Source: Promethearchaeati archaeon SRVP18_Atabeyarchaeia-1 (GTDB taxonomy: Archaea; Asgardarchaeota; Atabeyarchaeia; Atabeyarchaeales; Atabeyarchaeaceae). From it: 64,000 nucleotides of DNA. The position numbers were made by a program, and so were the translations under genes. The stretch is taken from positions 1,024,001-1,088,000 of the forward strand of contig CP147779.1 in the NCBI GenBank assembly GCA_037308085.1, read 5' to 3'. Shown in pieces: positions 12,444 to 20,187 of the stretch (its first letter is position 1; every line of letters begins with the position of its first letter). Under the pieces are notes generated by a model, which saw nothing but the letters and a program-made list of their open reading frames with translations, made no database searches and was not told the DNA's origin.

Positions 12444-13064
12444 TTGATCGCGATACCTTACGGTACAGAGATACTCGATCTCATTCCGGTGTTTCTATTG
12501 ATCGCTGGCATTCTCACGATCCTTTACGCTTTTGTTCGCCTAAAGGCACCAGGAAAGACAACAGGTGCCGAGACGCTAATGGGCGCAGTGACTTTCATCA
12601 TAGGCATGGCGCTTCCTGTGGGTGCCGCTCTATGCTTTGTAGACCGTGCATTTGGGATCTTCACAGTTATCCTCCTGCTAATATTGAGTGCTGCGCTCGT
12701 CTTGGGACCGATTTCCAGAATCATCAAGAAGATTCCAACATTAGGCTTAGCCGCGGTGATAGCGTTGATCGCGTCATACGTAATCGCCACATTTGTGACC
12801 GCCCTCATTCCTCAGTCTCTTCAAACCTACCTTGCGGGCTATGGCATCAGCCACTGGCTAATGATTATCCTCTTCATCATAATCCTGGCTCTCTTGTTCA
12901 CAATGCTCATTTTCGCTAAGGGTCTCATACAACTCACTGGCATGGTTCTGGGTGCCTGGCCGATCATGATTGTAATCGGTGCGATATGCGTGATTCAGGG
13001 CGTACTGCTAGCGTTTGGGATGAGCCTATCGCAGGGCTTTGAAGTAATCCTAGTGCCTTGGTAG
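12444..13064 (+). CDS. Multi-pass membrane protein
   Basis: About 6 hydrophobic segments; no family recognised. Confidence 0.7.
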   Translation: MIAIPYGTEILDLIPVFLLIAGILTILYAFVRLKAPGKTTGAETLMGAVTFIIGMALPVGAALCFVDRAFGIFTVILLLILSAALVLGPISRIIKKIPTLGLAAVIALIASYVIATFVTALIPQSLQTYLAGYGISHWLMIILFIIILALLFTMLIFAKGLIQLTGMVLGAWPIMIVIGAICVIQGVLLAFGMSLSQGFEVILVPW

Positions 13065-13216: not shown

Positions 13217-14047
13217 ATGAGGATCAGAAAAGGAATAGAAATAGTGGAGAATCATCCTGCCCTATTCGTAGAACCCATCGACACGGTTGTAGTTGCAGAT
13301 CTGCATCTTGGGATAGAACGGGAACTGGCAACCACCGGTATCTTCCTTCCTCGCTTTCAGTATCAAGACATCAAGGAGTCTCTCTCATTGATCATCAACA
13401 AGGTCGCCCCCAGGCAGATCATTGTAAACGGGGATCTTAAGCATAGGTTTGGCGGGAGAACCGACCAGGAGTTCAACGAAGTCATCGATTCACTTAGCTT
13501 CCTTACAGAGAACGTGGAGAATGTAATTGTAATCCGCGGGAATCACGACAACTTTGTCAAAGGGTTGTTTGCGCGGTTCCCGAAGACAAGGTTCGTCGAA
13601 AGCGTATACACCGAAGGAGATTTCACCTTCACGCACGGTCATGTCATCCCCCTTGAGATTGGAACGCAGGAATCCAAAGTTATCGTAATAGGTCACGAGC
13701 ATCCCGCAATCGGCCTTAGGGATGACGTCGGCGCGAAAGTGAAGCTGAGAGCGCTGCTTGTAGGTTCAGCTGGACCCAAGAAGGAACTAGTAGTGCTGCC
13801 AGCATATTCGCCGCTAGCTCTTGGGGCAGAAGTGAACATGGTCACATACGACGAGGAGATACTCTCCCCGTTTCTAAAGAGCTATGTGCCCCTGGAAAGC
13901 ATGAGGGCATACGGCATAGATTCACAGTCGGGGATATTCAGTTTCCCAGAGCTAAAGTATTGGCGAGGAACTGAACCGACAACGTATTTAGCTAATGAGC
14001 ACAATCGCGGTGTAGCAAAGAGAAAACGGCGCCACAGATATAGGTGA
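13217..14047 (+). CDS. ICC-like metallophosphoesterase
   Basis: ADLHLG, NGDLKH, RGNHD, THGH, GHEHP motifs. Confidence 0.9.
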   Translation: MRIRKGIEIVENHPALFVEPIDTVVVADLHLGIERELATTGIFLPRFQYQDIKESLSLIINKVAPRQIIVNGDLKHRFGGRTDQEFNEVIDSLSFLTENVENVIVIRGNHDNFVKGLFARFPKTRFVESVYTEGDFTFTHGHVIPLEIGTQESKVIVIGHEHPAIGLRDDVGAKVKLRALLVGSAGPKKELVVLPAYSPLALGAEVNMVTYDEEILSPFLKSYVPLESMRAYGIDSQSGIFSFPELKYWRGTEPTTYLANEHNRGVAKRKRRHRYR

Positions 14048-14126: not shown

Positions 14127-15053
14127 TTGTGGGCGAAAGCATTCTGTCCAGGTCACATAACAGGCTTCTTCGAAATATGTGACCAGCCCACCGACCCCCT
14201 AAAGCGTGGGTCACGGGGTGCCGGCGTATCAATAAACAGAGGTGTAGCCACAGAAGTCATTATCGAAGAGTCGAGTCCCGCGAAGGTGGAGGTAACCATC
14301 AACGGAAAATCCGACCCGGCTCCAGTGACGAATAGCGTAGTCAACCTCATGTCGAGACTACGCCACGACCAGACTAGTCTCCACATTAAGATCAAACATG
14401 AGTCTCTTATCCCAGTAGGATGTGGAATGGGTTCGAGTGGAGCAGGAGCGTGGGGAACAGCCCTATCGCTCAATAATTTGCTCAAGCTGAGTCTGACCCA
14501 GGACCGGGTTGGGCAGATAGCACACAGGGCTGAAGTTGAGAATAGAACAGGGCTGGGAACGGTCATCGCCCAGCAGCGAGGAGGGATCGAAATAAGACCA
14601 ACCCCAGGAGCTCCAGGAGTCGGGCATGTCGACCAGATCCCTTTTCACCCGGACCTGCGGGTAGTCTGTAGCTCGATGGGCGCAATCTCAACGAAATCAA
14701 TGCTCACCGACCCCGCAATAAGAGCAAGCATAAACAAGTACGGTGGAAAACTAGTGAAGCAAATATGCAACAGTGCCTCCCCGGAAACGCTAATGAAGTT
14801 ATCAAGAGAATTCTCGCAACGAACGAGGCTACAATCAAGGAGAGTTGATGATGGTCTAGAGATGCTAGATGAAAAAGGTTTTCACGACTGTAGCATGGCG
14901 TTGTTTGGGGATACGATTTTCTCTATTGCGTGGGAGGATGAAGCAGAGAGTATTGTTAGAGTCCTCAAAGACTGGAACAAGGTGGGTGAGACGTTCTCTA
15001 CGGCAATAGACATGATTGGCGCAAGACTCATGGGATGTGAGAAAGATGGCTAA
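14127..15053 (+). CDS. pok: Pantoate kinase (archaeal, GHMP family)
   Basis: PGHITGFF, GSRGAG, PVGCGMGSSGA, AHRAEV..TGLGTV. Confidence 0.92.
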   Translation: MWAKAFCPGHITGFFEICDQPTDPLKRGSRGAGVSINRGVATEVIIEESSPAKVEVTINGKSDPAPVTNSVVNLMSRLRHDQTSLHIKIKHESLIPVGCGMGSSGAGAWGTALSLNNLLKLSLTQDRVGQIAHRAEVENRTGLGTVIAQQRGGIEIRPTPGAPGVGHVDQIPFHPDLRVVCSSMGAISTKSMLTDPAIRASINKYGGKLVKQICNSASPETLMKLSREFSQRTRLQSRRVDDGLEMLDEKGFHDCSMALFGDTIFSIAWEDEAESIVRVLKDWNKVGETFSTAIDMIGARLMGCEKDG

Positions 15054-15831
15054 TATCCCGGAAACGCATCCAAGAGCCGCTTCTCTGAAGGTCCGAGAGC
15101 TGCTAATCGAGGGCTTCAAGGAAGGATACGTTGCGATGGCAGGGTTGATTGCCCATGGTCGCGGGGAAGCATTCGACTACCTCCTGGGAGAGGAAACGCC
15201 GCCGCCAGCCCTCATTGCCACGAAGGCAGCGGCTGCGGCTCTTTTGCTGGCAGAACGCCCCGTCATCAGCGTAAACGGAAACCTTGCCGCCTTGGCCCCC
15301 AAGGAAACAGTCGAGTTGGCGAAGCTTACTAATTCAAGGATAGAAGTCAACTTATTCTACAGGACAAAGGAACGGGAGAGGGGAATCGAAAGAGTCCTGA
15401 GAAATGCAGGCGCCACCGAAGTACTGGGCGTGGGTGACTCTGCAAGCGCGACAATACCTGAGCTTTTCAGCGAAAGAAGAAGGGTAGATCCCAGCGGCAT
15501 ACTGGTTGCCGACACAGTTCTAGTTTTGATGGAGGATGGGGATCGAACGGAAGCCCTTCGCAAAATGGGGAAGAAAGTGATTGCAATAGATCTGAATCCA
15601 CTCAGCCGGACATCGCGGGCTGCAAACATCACGATCGTAGACAACGCCGTGAGGGCAATGCCCAATTTAATGATCGAATCGAGAAAAGCAAAGAAGCAAG
15701 ACAGGTCAACCTTGTACGGACAAATCAAAGAATTTAATAATGAAAGGAACCTATTAGACTGCCTTAACCAGATCTGGAGAAGAATCTCAAGGTTGAAGAA
15801 AGAAGGGCTTGCCATGGACTATGACCTGTAG
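15046..15831 (+). CDS. pps: 4-phosphopantoate--beta-alanine ligase
   Basis: IPETHPRAASL, AHGRGEAFDYLLGE, SVNGN, EDGDR, IDLNPLSRT. Confidence 0.95.
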   Translation: MANIPETHPRAASLKVRELLIEGFKEGYVAMAGLIAHGRGEAFDYLLGEETPPPALIATKAAAAALLLAERPVISVNGNLAALAPKETVELAKLTNSRIEVNLFYRTKERERGIERVLRNAGATEVLGVGDSASATIPELFSERRRVDPSGILVADTVLVLMEDGDRTEALRKMGKKVIAIDLNPLSRTSRAANITIVDNAVRAMPNLMIESRKAKKQDRSTLYGQIKEFNNERNLLDCLNQIWRRISRLKKEGLAMDYDL

Positions 15832-15928
15832 CCCTGATCGATTTTGCCGATAAAACTCCCAACTGCAATTCCGAGCATTTATGGAGGAGGCAATTGCTTC
15901 TGGGTTTCCAAGAGGTGTTAGAAAACCG

Positions 15929-17242
15929 TTGAAGAGATCCCCACAAGAACAGAAGAATGTACTTCAGGTTGCCCTAGACTTCGAGAACATGCATCGAGCT
16001 CTACAAGTCGCATCTGAGGCTGTAAAGGGAGGCGCCGATTGGCTCGAAGCGGGGACGCCTCTCATCAAGAGCGAAGGTCTAAACTGTGTTCGAGAACTGA
16101 GGAAGAGATTTCCCGACAAGTTGATTGTCGCCGACATGAAGACAATGGACACAGGTCGATTCGAAGTAGAAATAGCAGCTAAAGCGGGGGCCCAAGTAGT
16201 AATCATATTGGCTACCGCGGATGATAGTACCATCAAAGAAGCCGTAGAGGCTGGTCGGAACTACGGCGCGCAAATAATGGCTGACCTGATCAATGTAAGC
16301 GATATGGTTTCCAGGGCTGTGGAACTCGAGAAGATTGGCGTTGACTACATTTGCATTCACATCGGAATAGATCAGCAGATGAGAGGCATGAAAGCGGAGG
16401 ACATAATCAAGAAGGTTGCCGAAGTAGTCCGCACACCCATAGCCGCAGCAGGCGGAGTAAACTCGGAGAATGTACCAACTCTGGTGGAAGCTGGCGCCCA
16501 AATAGTAATCGTCGGAGGCGCAATCACGAAAGCCGAGAACGCGGAAGAGGCTACCAGGGCGCTGAAGAAAGCGCTAGTCACTAGGACGGCGATCGCGACC
16601 AAACTCTATAAGAAATATGGCGAAGAAGACATATTCAAAGTCTTTAGAATGTGCTCAACTCCGAACATTTCCGATGCCATGCACAGAAGGGGAGAAATGA
16701 AGGGAATACTCCCAGTGTCAGCTAACTGCAAAATGGTCGGAAGGGCCTTGACAGTTCGCACATACCCTGGCGATTGGGCAAAGCCGGTCGAAAGCATTGA
16801 CATAGGCGCAGAGGGAGATGTAATAGTGATTGAAGCAGGTGGGCAAGGCCCCGCCGTTTGGGGAGAGCTGGCAACGTGGAGCTGCAGAACTCAAGGCATC
16901 GAGGGTGTCGTGATAGATGGCGCCATAAGGGATGTCGAGGATATCCGCGAAATGGGATTTCCAGCATTCTCTCGTCTGGTAAGCCCCACTGCGGGTGAAC
17001 CGAAAGGCTTCGGGGAAATTAATGTCGAGATAACCTGTGGAGACATCAAGGTGAGACCCGGTGACTACATAATCGGCGACGATAACGGGGTCGTAGTCGT
17101 ACCCAAGGAGTCAGCCGTAGAGGTAGCGAACCGATCAATCGACGTGAGAGAGAAAGAGAACAGAGTGCGAGAAGAGATAAAAAGAGGGAGTACTCTATCC
17201 AAAGTCCAGAAGCTCAAGCAGTGGGAGAAAGTCATTGGCTAA
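15929..17242 (+). CDS. 3-hexulose-6-phosphate synthase fused to an RraA/HMG-aldolase-like domain
   Basis: N-terminal LQVALD, EAGTPLIKSEG, ADMKTMDTG, HIGIDQQ; C-terminal STPNISDAM, AVWGE, DGAIRD, GDDNGVVVVP; GAGGTG before TTG. Confidence 0.9.
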   Translation: MKRSPQEQKNVLQVALDFENMHRALQVASEAVKGGADWLEAGTPLIKSEGLNCVRELRKRFPDKLIVADMKTMDTGRFEVEIAAKAGAQVVIILATADDSTIKEAVEAGRNYGAQIMADLINVSDMVSRAVELEKIGVDYICIHIGIDQQMRGMKAEDIIKKVAEVVRTPIAAAGGVNSENVPTLVEAGAQIVIVGGAITKAENAEEATRALKKALVTRTAIATKLYKKYGEEDIFKVFRMCSTPNISDAMHRRGEMKGILPVSANCKMVGRALTVRTYPGDWAKPVESIDIGAEGDVIVIEAGGQGPAVWGELATWSCRTQGIEGVVIDGAIRDVEDIREMGFPAFSRLVSPTAGEPKGFGEINVEITCGDIKVRPGDYIIGDDNGVVVVPKESAVEVANRSIDVREKENRVREEIKRGSTLSKVQKLKQWEKVIG

Positions 17243-17318
17243 GCTTCGATTAGGCTGTTTACCTTGTTTTCTTCATGGACCTGTGGTTATGCGATCCGGG
17301 TGACTTGGTGACGTATCC

Positions 17319-18248
17319 TTGCGATTGATAGTTCTTGGGGCCGGAGCCATTGGTAGCCTCTTAGGGGGTCTATTATCGGAAGTCGGACTGGACGTCACGC
17401 TAGTTGGGAGACAAGCTCACACGAAAGCCATTAGGTCGCGGGGGCTGCACATAAGTGGAGTTGTTGGAAGCAAGACTATCAGAATTGAGTCAGAAGCAAG
17501 CGCCTCTGCAATCAAGGGCAAAGCAGACATGATTCTATGCACCGTGAAAGCCTACGATACTGAGCAGGCGGCCACTGACGCAAAGACGCTGATGGGCAAG
17601 GATTCCATATTTCTATGTATGCAGAACGGGCTCGGTGTTGAGAATGAGGCGGCCAAAGTGCTCGGCGAAGCAAATGTAACAAGGGGAGTGACCAACACTG
17701 GTGCGCTTCTTGTTAAACCAGGTTACATTGAATGCACTGGAGTAGGCGACACAATCGTCGGCTGTCCAAATGAGGACTGGAAACCCAAGATCAGCGGATT
17801 AGTCGAAGCTTTAAACTCCGCAGGACTCCCAGCCATGCTCACAAGGAACATATCGAATGCTGTTTGGACAAAGGTACTCGTAAACGTCGGAATAAATGCA
17901 ATCGGAGCTATAACTCGTCTAAAGAATGGAGACCTCCTTTCGAATCCCTACTTGAAGGATCTCATGAGATCAGCTGTCACCGAAGCTCTAGCAGTATCGG
18001 AAAAGGCTGGATTGAACCTCAAGAAAGAAGACATTGTCGAGAAGACCTTCAAAATCGCTGAGGCAACGGCAGCTAACAAGAACTCGATGCTACAAGATGC
18101 TGAGAAAGGCAAGAGAACGGAGATCGACTTTATTAACGGAGCAGTCGCTAGAATCGGTAAAAGTATAGGTATCCCAACTCCGATCAATGACACGCTTACT
18201 GCCCTGGTCAAGGGCGCGGAATCACGTGCTCTTCGGAACGAAACATGA
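17319..18248 (+). CDS. panE: 2-dehydropantoate 2-reductase
   Basis: GAGAIG, VKAYD, QNG, WTKVLVN, SMLQD..GKRTEIDFING. Confidence 0.93.
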   Translation: MRLIVLGAGAIGSLLGGLLSEVGLDVTLVGRQAHTKAIRSRGLHISGVVGSKTIRIESEASASAIKGKADMILCTVKAYDTEQAATDAKTLMGKDSIFLCMQNGLGVENEAAKVLGEANVTRGVTNTGALLVKPGYIECTGVGDTIVGCPNEDWKPKISGLVEALNSAGLPAMLTRNISNAVWTKVLVNVGINAIGAITRLKNGDLLSNPYLKDLMRSAVTEALAVSEKAGLNLKKEDIVEKTFKIAEATAANKNSMLQDAEKGKRTEIDFINGAVARIGKSIGIPTPINDTLTALVKGAESRALRNET

Positions 18249-18278
18249 ACGACAGGAAGCTCACAGGAGAAATGATCA

Positions 18279-19445
18279 TTGGAAGAACAAGGGATTCCTG
18301 CTAACAAGATACTGCAAGAACTTGAGGAACGCACCAAGAACGACTATACCCATGACTCAGGCAGGATACTCGGATCGATGATATCGAAACCGCACAGATT
18401 CGCCTCCGAAGTGTACATAAAATACCTTGAAAAGAACTTAGGTGACCCAGGTCTATGCCCTGGAGTTGCGGAGATAGAGAAAGAGGCAATAGGGCTCATC
18501 GGGTCGCTACTTCACCATCCAAACGCATCAGGTAATATCGTGACGGGGGGCACCGAAGCCAACCTGATTGCGATGGCCGTTGCCCGGAACATGAGAGAAG
18601 ATACCAGAAGACCGACAATCATAATGCCGAGGTCGGCCCACGTATCCTTTGACAAAGCCGCAAGCCTACTGTGCCTTCACAAGATCAAGGTGGGTCTGAA
18701 TAGGTCCTTTCAAATGAATGTGGATGAACTCAAAAGATCCATCACCGGCGACACCGTGGCAATCGTCGCTGTCGCGGGAACGACGGTCTTAGGGGTTGTC
18801 GACCCCATCGAAGAAATATCTGAAATAGCCGAGGACAAGGGTATATTCATGCATGTAGACGCGGCATTCGGAGGCTTTGTCCTACCATTTCTAAGAGAGC
18901 TTGGATACGACACGCCAGACTTTGATTTCAGACTCAAAGGAGTCTCCTCAATGACGATAGACCCGCACAAAATGGGATTTTGCCCAATCCCAGCGGGAGG
19001 AATACTTTTCAGAAAGCGCAGCTACATCAAGTATAATGGCGTCAAAGTCCCCTACTTGGCGGGCGGAATCGCAACCCAAGGAACAATAGTAGGAACGCGA
19101 AGCGGAGCTTCAGCATGCGCTGTCTGGGCACTTCTGAAGCACCTAGGCCGCCAGGGATTCATGGATGCGGTCAAACACTGCATGGAGCTTACGAATTACC
19201 TTGTTGATAGAATCAAGAACTTGAAAGGTGTTCAGCTCACAACCCAACCCACCCTGAACATGATTGGGATCAAGTCAAACCAATATTCCATCAAGTCAAT
19301 CTGGAAGAGGCTCAGGGAAAGAAAGTGGGCGGTAGGTGGGCTCAAGGAGTCACTACGCATAGTGATCCTGCCACACATTGAACGCGAACACGTAGACGCC
19401 TTCCTAAACGATCTGCAAGCGATCCTGGAAGAGTTGAGGAGCTAA
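18279..19445 (+). CDS. mfnA: PLP-dependent aspartate 1-decarboxylase / tyrosine decarboxylase (MfnA type), beta-alanine source
   Basis: NLGDPGL, GGTEAN, HVDAAFGG, DPHK; located in the pantothenate operon. Confidence 0.88.
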   Translation: MEEQGIPANKILQELEERTKNDYTHDSGRILGSMISKPHRFASEVYIKYLEKNLGDPGLCPGVAEIEKEAIGLIGSLLHHPNASGNIVTGGTEANLIAMAVARNMREDTRRPTIIMPRSAHVSFDKAASLLCLHKIKVGLNRSFQMNVDELKRSITGDTVAIVAVAGTTVLGVVDPIEEISEIAEDKGIFMHVDAAFGGFVLPFLRELGYDTPDFDFRLKGVSSMTIDPHKMGFCPIPAGGILFRKRSYIKYNGVKVPYLAGGIATQGTIVGTRSGASACAVWALLKHLGRQGFMDAVKHCMELTNYLVDRIKNLKGVQLTTQPTLNMIGIKSNQYSIKSIWKRLRERKWAVGGLKESLRIVILPHIEREHVDAFLNDLQAILEELRS

Positions 19446-19503: not shown

Positions 19504-20187
19504 TCAGAGGAACATTCTCGAGGATTTAGCCGCAAGTTCGATGTGTTTGCGACCTTCGTTTATAACTGGATTCATGTGACCCGGGAAAAGGTGCTTCACT
19601 TCAAGACCTGAAAGCATTTCTATCGATTTTACCAAAGCATCTGGATCTCCGGTTGGGAAGTCGACCCTGCCAAAACTCCCATCGGCAAAAACCGTGTCAC
19701 CGGAAAAAAGCATACCTTTTTCCTCGTCGAAAAGGCAGATGCTTCCAGCAGTGTGACCTGGAGTATTTATGACCTTCAGCCTATTCTCGCCGATCTCTAG
19801 GGTCTCTCCATCCTTGAGTTTGACATCAACTTTCGTCGGGGGATAAGTCATGCCCATCAATGTAGAGAGGATTACTGATCCCCTGCCAGTCTCGATGTAG
19901 GGGGCCTCCAACTCGTAGACAAGCACCTGCGGAGATAGATCCTTCACGATTCTTGGTAGCCCGCCCGAGTGGTCAATATGTACATGGGTGAGAACAACTT
20001 TCCGGATAGCCTCTTTCCGGAGACCCAAAGACTCGACGTAGCGATAGATATCCGATACGGACAGCCCAGTTCCAGTATCAATCAAGGTGACGCTGTTCCT
20101 GTCTCTTAGAACATAGATATTTCCGTCAAACCCGCTCCCCTGAATCAAGTGCACATTTCCTAGCAACTGCATATAGCCAAGCCCCAA
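19504..20187 (-). CDS. MBL-fold metallo-hydrolase
   Basis: THVHIDHSGG, TPGHT, FSGD, PGH. Confidence 0.9.
   Translation of the reverse strand: MGLGYMQLLGNVHLIQGSGFDGNIYVLRDRNSVTLIDTGTGLSVSDIYRYVESLGLRKEAIRKVVLTHVHIDHSGGLPRIVKDLSPQVLVYELEAPYIETGRGSVILSTLMGMTYPPTKVDVKLKDGETLEIGENRLKVINTPGHTAGSICLFDEEKGMLFSGDTVFADGSFGRVDFPTGDPDALVKSIEMLSGLEVKHLFPGHMNPVINEGRKHIELAAKSSRMFL

Follow-up and report, generated by a model that had tools for sequence, protein, structure and literature searches.

A fused hexulose-6-phosphate synthase and RraA-like aldolase as a candidate ketopantoate-forming enzyme of archaea and bacteria without panB

How is ketopantoate formed in organisms without ketopantoate hydroxymethyltransferase (PanB)? 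This reaction commits the cell to the synthesis of vitamin B5 and coenzyme A (CoA). Many archaea, methanogens among them, and various anaerobic bacteria possess the remaining enzymes of the pathway and lack PanB. For the archaea, this gap has been noted since the comparative reconstructions of CoA synthesis of the 2000s. The same question is raised by a gene cluster of the Asgard archaeon Promethearchaeati archaeon SRVP18_Atabeyarchaeia-1, which is located at positions 14127 to 19445 of the stretch of DNA analyzed here (64,000 nucleotides, positions 1,024,001 to 1,088,000 of contig CP147779.1; referred to as the window). The cluster consists of five genes in the same orientation with short gaps, which were assigned from a list of open reading frames and from profile searches against Pfam and NCBIfam:

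14127–15053, plus strand: probable pantoate kinase (PoK), a COG1829-like GHMP kinase (PF00288; NF041122, 170 bits; NF040725, 141 bits)
15016–15831, plus strand: phosphopantothenate synthetase (PPS; PF02006, 234 bits; NF010324, 349 bits, cut-off 227)
15881–17242, plus strand: fusion of 3-hexulose-6-phosphate synthase (HPS) and an RraA-like aldolase, 453 amino acids, candidate ketopantoate-forming enzyme (NF005442, 643.3 bits, cut-off 593, residues 25–450)
15953–16585, plus strand: HPS domain of the fusion, approximately residues 25–235 (TIGR03128, 219.7 bits, cut-off 200)
16613–17239, plus strand: RraA-like class II aldolase domain of the fusion, approximately residues 245–453, with G328-E329, R350-D351 and E424 (PF03737, 162 bits)
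17319–18248, plus strand: ketopantoate reductase PanE (PF02558, PF08546; TIGR00745, 270 bits, cut-off 141)
18279–19445, plus strand: MfnA-type pyridoxal phosphate-dependent decarboxylase (TIGR03812, 474 bits, cut-off 299)

We regard the fusion protein encoded in the middle of this cluster as a likely non-orthologous replacement of PanB. A preliminary description of the locus had listed the same five co-oriented genes (pok, pps, the HPS-RraA fusion, panE and the decarboxylase), and their coordinates and families were upheld by the profile searches. It had proposed that the fusion forms ketopantoate, and had anticipated that panB is absent from the whole genome, that fusion and panB exclude each other in other organisms, and that the fusion recurrently clusters with the pantothenate genes.

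The genome containing the window is assembled as one contig of 2,808,651 bp with a completeness of 96.9%. The anticipated absence of panB was confirmed for the entire genome: the PanB profile PF02548 gave no match, and the best match to TIGR00222 was at chance level (E = 0.19, 11.6 bits). The same searches were positive in 11 out of 14 control genomes. There was no PF02548 signal within the fusion protein either, so any equivalence to PanB would be that of a functional analogue, not of a family member. Incomplete assembly was rejected as the main cause of the missing panB genes, because the window genome, its sister genome G001 and the genomes G400 and G401 are single-contig or complete, and because the pattern spans whole genera.

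We compared the distribution of the fusion and panB in a sample of 400 genomes of the Asgard phylum, three of which belong to the class of the window organism. The fusion was counted if it scored above the NF005442 cut-off. It was present in 44 genomes and panB in 308, and both exceeded their thresholds together only in the genomes G153, G155 and G206. Accordingly, panB was missing in 41 of the 44 carriers of the fusion versus 51 of the 356 non-carriers, the other 305 of which have panB (Fisher p = 1e-26, without phylogenetic correction). Three of the 51 non-carriers without panB hold truncated or sub-threshold versions of the fusion, and 48 have neither gene. PPS is missing as well in 27 of these 48 genomes, which include all members of the families f25, f27, f28 and f29, and the 21 genomes with PPS, which occur sporadically in various panB-rich genera, are multi-contig drafts with the exception of G368. 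Because the genomes with neither gene are mostly devoid of PPS or drafts, nearly every Asgard genome with the pathway has either the fusion or panB.

An independent bacterial replicate was provided by a sample of 121 Desulfobacterales genomes, in which panB was missing in all six carriers of the fusion versus six of the 115 other genomes (p = 2e-7). We further analyzed 55 named carriers belonging to many different phyla of archaea and bacteria (Thermoplasmatota, Bathyarchaeia, Nezhaarchaeales, Altiarchaeales, Thermodesulfobacteriota, Omnitrophota, Actinomycetota, Planctomycetota and others), of which 53 lack panB and two contain it. The panC gene was detected in 23 of these carriers, and 22 of the 23, which are bacteria, lack panB, including two complete chromosomes. 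Methanosarcina acetivorans, which served as a named control, has the fusion and PPS and no panB. The predicted anticorrelation is therefore strong in the Asgard archaea, in the Desulfobacterales and in the 55 carriers from other groups. We hold it very likely that carriers without panB depend on the fusion for making ketopantoate.

The gene neighbourhoods of the fusion were compared for 40 loci of Asgard archaea and 80 named loci. The panE gene directly follows the fusion gene in about ten archaeal lineages, namely in the families f1, f3, f15, f16, f17 and f24, in the genus g46, and in metagenome-assembled genomes (MAGs) labelled as Nitrososphaerota, Hecatellales and Nezhaarchaeales. The complete order PoK-PPS-fusion-PanE-MfnA is present in f1, f15 and f16. 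The recurrent clustering with pok, pps, panE and mfnA expected from the preliminary description was thus observed. Asgard archaea carrying panB contain this gene in equivalent clusters, which are arranged as PoK-PPS-PanB-PanE (G006), PanE-PoK-PPS-PanB (G066) or MfnA-PanB-PanE (G142).

The most telling result is the exchange of fusion and panB in the same chromosomal slot of two Asgard genera. Three genomes of genus g52 (G165, G169 and G174) show the gene order MfnA, s9, s3, Ras-GTPase, fusion, s10, IlvE, and three others of the same genus (G168, G171 and G173) show the order MfnA, s9, s3, Ras-GTPase, PanB, s10, IlvE. The same swap was observed in genus g53, with the fusion occupying the slot in G215 and G196 and panB in G187 and G206; in the latter genome, which contains both genes, panB keeps the slot and the fusion is located elsewhere. 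The aminotransferase flanking the slot was identified as the branched-chain type IlvE (NF009897, 413 bits). IlvE interconverts valine and ketoisovalerate, which is the substrate of PanB.

These results also bear on the possibility that the fusion has some other role in CoA or branched-chain metabolism, acting as an oxaloacetate decarboxylase, an HMG-type aldolase or the catalyst of a different one-carbon (C1) reaction, and that another enzyme or salvage covers the PanB step. We consider this quite improbable. The exact same-slot swap with panB in two genera speaks against it, as do the great majority of carriers without panB (41/44 in Asgard archaea, 6/6 in Desulfobacterales and 53/55 elsewhere), the retention of PanE, which needs ketopantoate, directly downstream of the fusion, and the 22 bacteria which combine panC and the fusion and have no panB. 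What makes such a role conceivable is that those relatives of the RraA half which have been characterized act as HMG/CHA aldolases or oxaloacetate decarboxylases, that PPS is found in some organisms devoid of both panB and the fusion, and that the gene contexts in Thermoplasmatota (DUF362/4Fe-4S and YaaH) and Omnitrophota (CdhD-like, pterin-binding and YjbQ) are not related to pantothenate.

The view of the fusion as a probable replacement of PanB, as put forward in the preliminary description, is strongly supported by comparative genomics. PanB (EC 2.1.2.11, PF02548) and the fusion would share the product, the 2-oxoacid substrate and a metal-assisted enolisation. In CoA operons their genes take equivalent positions, and in sister species they are found in one and the same chromosomal slot. 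The fusion is unrelated to PanB in sequence and fold, and the C1 donor of PanB is 5,10-methylene-tetrahydrofolate, whereas the proposed donor for the fusion is formaldehyde from hexulose-6-phosphate.

Which features of the protein are compatible with such a function? An alignment of 109 full-length fusions showed 50–85% identity to the window protein, and the clades of the resulting tree broadly track taxonomy, consisting of bacteria, Thermoplasmatota, Asgard and TACK archaea, and a second Asgard group. The AlphaFold model of the fusion reached a pLDDT of 93 and a pTM of 0.85. In this predicted structure, the N-terminal half superposes on the HPS structures 3ajx and 3f4w with TM-scores of 0.94–0.95, which places it among the 3-hexulose-6-phosphate synthases by fold as well as by its domain score. 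It is also closely related to the HPS half of the HPS-PHI fusion (PDB 9LJ9; NF041755), with a score of 223 bits. The partner in the latter protein is the isomerase of the same pathway, whereas PHI is a separate gene in the window genome.

The C-terminal half superposes on two class II aldolases of the RraA fold, the HMG/CHA aldolase of Pseudomonas putida (3NOJ) and PSPTO_3204 (3K4I), with TM-scores of 0.81–0.87. According to a HMMER alignment, residues G101/D102, R123/D124 and E199 of 3NOJ correspond to G328/E329, R350/D351 and E424 of the fusion, all of which are invariant or nearly so in the 109 fusions. The Arg-Asp pair that had been described beforehand as retained in a GAIRD motif is indeed present, with the motif formed by G347-A348-I349-R350-D351. 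In 3NOJ, the essential residue Arg-123 serves to stabilise the enolate of pyruvate, the metal ligands are Asp-124 and Glu-199, and Gly-101 lines the pyruvate pocket (PMC5065237). The catalytic Arg and the Asp/Glu ligands of the HMG/CHA aldolases are therefore present in the fusion (R350, D351 and E424), and D102 is replaced by Glu. The residues of the distal or phosphate site of 3NOJ (N71, H75, T145 and K147) are not kept, and an invariant loop specific for the fusions, AGEPKGFGE, is found instead. It appears that the enolate-forming half-site was kept and the electrophile site rebuilt, a reading which is suggestive only because it is derived from a pairwise alignment at about 30% identity. 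An altered distal pocket is expected if the electrophile differs from that of HMG/CHA aldolase. In further difference to the latter enzymes, the fusion stays below their equivalog cut-offs (TIGR02798, 108.2 vs. 304.5 bits; NF006731, 123.4 vs. 179 bits), carries an HPS domain, and does not occur in a context of aromatic catabolism.

The protein is a full-length member of the family NF005442/PRK07028, which is named 'bifunctional hexulose-6-phosphate synthase/ribonuclease regulator'. If this annotation were correct, the fusion would combine HPS with a ribonuclease regulator and would be found among CoA genes by chance. Apart from the family name, the RraA fold of the C-terminal half is in line with this assumption, which we nevertheless regard as extremely improbable. 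The models for RraA as regulator of RNase E score far below their cut-offs (NF006875, 60 vs. 136 bits; TIGR02998, 35 vs. 241 bits). The domain is of the long aldolase type, consisting of about 210 amino acids with a C-terminal helix and the catalytic Arg/Asp/Glu set, versus about 160 amino acids for the short RraA protein, and chance cannot account for the way in which the fusion is tied to panB in phyletic distribution and position. Whereas the family name assigns the role of an RNase regulator to the C-terminal half, the evidence presented here points to an aldolase in pantoate synthesis.

If the fusion replaces PanB, its two domains may act in sequence. In the proposed pathway, fructose-6-phosphate would be converted to hexulose-6-phosphate by PHI, which is encoded elsewhere in the genome (TIGR03127, 170 bits, cut-off 160). 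The N-terminal HPS domain would then cleave hexulose-6-phosphate to ribulose-5-phosphate and formaldehyde, and the C-terminal domain, acting as a divalent metal-dependent class II 2-oxoacid aldolase, would enolise 2-ketoisovalerate at C3 and add it to formaldehyde. The condensation product would be ketopantoate, formed without the participation of folate or methanopterin. PanE would subsequently convert ketopantoate to pantoate, which would be phosphorylated by PoK and joined by PPS to beta-alanine provided by the MfnA-type decarboxylase. Profile searches also revealed two IlvD genes in the genome; together with the presence of PHI, this indicates that both hexulose-6-phosphate and 2-ketoisovalerate can be made. 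We consider the two-step mechanism, in which HPS frees formaldehyde and the aldolase domain adds the C3 carbanion of ketoisovalerate, fairly probable. The chemistry of the two steps, the nature of the nucleophile and a possible channelling of formaldehyde from one domain to the other are inferred.

The genome contains a second HPS gene outside of the window, which codes for a Fae-HPS fusion (NF009833, 587 bits; G000, contig C1, 439282–440466, corresponding to 483–1667 of locus L162). The organism thus has two HPS genes with different fusion partners, both of them putative consumers of formaldehyde, and Fae-HPS sets a precedent in this genome for an HPS coupled to a formaldehyde acceptor. Linking HPS to a consumer of formaldehyde is the accepted logic of the reverse ribulose monophosphate (RuMP) pathway in archaea (PMC11291895). 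The partner in Fae-HPS is the formaldehyde-activating enzyme producing methylene-tetrahydromethanopterin, not an aldolase. In Desulfobacterales, the gene for PHI is located directly upstream of the fusion gene, so that the two genes together provide for the complete conversion of sugar phosphate into formaldehyde. Given the presence of Fae-HPS in the genome, the proximity of PHI in bacteria and the strict conservation of the fusion as a single polypeptide, an HPS half serving as C1 donor would be the simplest reading.

Alternatively, only the RraA-like half might serve pantoate synthesis, using formaldehyde or another C1 donor from any source, while the HPS half would perform ordinary RuMP functions, either to make pentoses or to handle formaldehyde; in that case, the fusion would reflect co-regulation instead of a hand-over of the intermediate. 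The typical score and fold of the HPS half and the PHI gene adjoining the fusion in Desulfobacterales agree with this option, and the AlphaFold model provides confidence values, not a tunnel between the domains. We still judge it unlikely, since the two halves are kept as one polypeptide at 50–85% identity across archaea and bacteria, since Fae-HPS is already available in the genome for bulk RuMP flux, and since stand-alone RraA-like or HPS genes of panB-less Asgard families lie away from pantothenate genes, in families without PPS. The last point was obtained from loci containing stand-alone HPS (in f25, f2, f9 and others) or stand-alone RraA-like proteins (in f28 and as an extra copy in G001), which were inspected for a split version of the fusion serving the pathway in panB-less Asgard families. 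Because no pantothenate genes were found near these loci and because f25 and f28 do not have PPS altogether, the idea of a split form was dropped.

Several observations weigh against the fusion as a replacement of PanB. Both genes occur together in G153, G155, G206, G422 and G446, and also in G156, where the fusion is a fragment at a contig end; G153, G155 and G156 belong to the same genus, g46. The genomes with both genes may represent transitional states of the replacement, or they may use two enzymes under different conditions. Some organisms, including the control Methanocaldococcus jannaschii, have PPS and neither panB nor a full fusion, which calls for salvage or for at least one additional route. 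The fusion gene is not adjacent to panC in the bacteria that were sampled, and the two genes are megabases apart in G400 and G401. Because the bacterial fusion loci are not in pan operons, the evidence from operon structure is archaeal only. Moreover, the compared genomes are mostly draft MAGs, related genomes do not represent independent observations, and part of the anticorrelation could stem from a missing folate metabolism as a common confounding factor. As for the chemistry, we know of no RraA-fold enzyme that uses ketoisovalerate or formaldehyde, and the HPS domain, which scores as an ordinary HPS and has a PHI neighbour in bacteria, could simply serve the RuMP pathway. With these points included, we favour with moderate confidence the interpretation of the fusion as a substrate-handing, folate-independent ketopantoate synthase that obtains its C1 unit from a sugar phosphate. 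For archaea without panB and for many anaerobic bacteria, it would represent the missing enzyme at the start of pantoate synthesis, and exchanges between it and panB would have happened repeatedly, even within one locus.

The assignments of the other genes of the cluster differ in firmness. The kinase scores of NF041122 and NF040725 are both below the equivalog cut-offs; because they are by far the best matches and the next family, mevalonate kinase, reached only 38 bits, we named the kinase a probable PoK. Its gene is collinear with those for PoK in related operons. The PPS protein probably starts a little downstream of position 15016, as judged from the NF010324 alignment, which begins at residue 12. 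The MfnA-type decarboxylase is likely an aspartate decarboxylase producing beta-alanine; its homologue in T. kodakarensis (GDC) is counted among the characterized genes of the CoA pathway (PMC6650551).

The cluster is flanked upstream by a gene for an SbcD-related metallophosphoesterase (13217–14047, plus strand; TIGR00024, 148 bits) and downstream by a convergent gene for an MBL-fold hydrolase (19504–20187, minus strand). In the sister genome G001, both flanking genes are found at the corresponding positions, and in G002 this holds for the MBL gene. G004 and G123 likewise contain a gene for an MBL protein close to the fusion. Further upstream in the window, an open reading frame of 206 amino acids (12444–13064, plus strand) without any Pfam or NCBIfam match overlaps with one of 194 amino acids in another frame. 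The sequencing runs found to contain the window DNA were DNA runs from metagenomes of wetlands and freshwater sediments, and none was an RNA run.

Other gene neighbourhoods of the fusion vary with the lineage. Ras-, Arf- and RagA-type GTPase genes flank the fusion locus in relatives of the window organism. At the ten slot loci of the genera g52 and g53, the Ras-family GTPase gene codes for 530 amino acids, and a Gtr1/RagA-like GTPase is encoded nearby. A gene for a YjbQ/UPF0047 protein is located directly upstream of the fusion at eight loci of Omnitrophota, Planctomycetota, Actinomycetota and Firestonebacteria. In many cases, genes for CdhD-like and pterin-binding (methyltransferase-like) proteins precede it and an AAA_26/DRTGG gene follows, an arrangement which looks like a context of C1 metabolism. 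At eleven loci of Thermoplasmatota, the fusion gene is followed by a gene for a DUF362 and 4Fe-4S ferredoxin domain protein and, in most cases, by a convergent gene of the YaaH/GPR1 family (acetate channel) and a gene coding for about 905 amino acids; no pantothenate genes adjoin the fusion at these loci. Seven loci of Methanomassiliicoccales-like Thermoplasmatota contain a conserved pair of genes for KaiC-like ATPases upstream of the fusion, and most of them a gene for an M48 peptidase downstream.

A full-text search of the literature retrieved no paper that ties the fusion or any RraA-fold protein to ketopantoate or pantoate synthesis. The paper on Atabeyarchaeia (PMC11291895) mentions HPS-PHI and Fae-HPS and neither RraA nor pantothenate. 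The fusion family itself is already catalogued as NF005442. If the suggested role in pantoate synthesis holds true, the ketopantoate gap would be filled, the widespread annotation as 'ribonuclease regulator' would be corrected, and the fold of RraA and the HMG aldolases would gain a new activity. In addition, the reverse RuMP pathway would be tied to cofactor synthesis, and metabolic reconstructions would improve for Asgard archaea, Thermoplasmatota, Methanosarcina and sulfate reducers.

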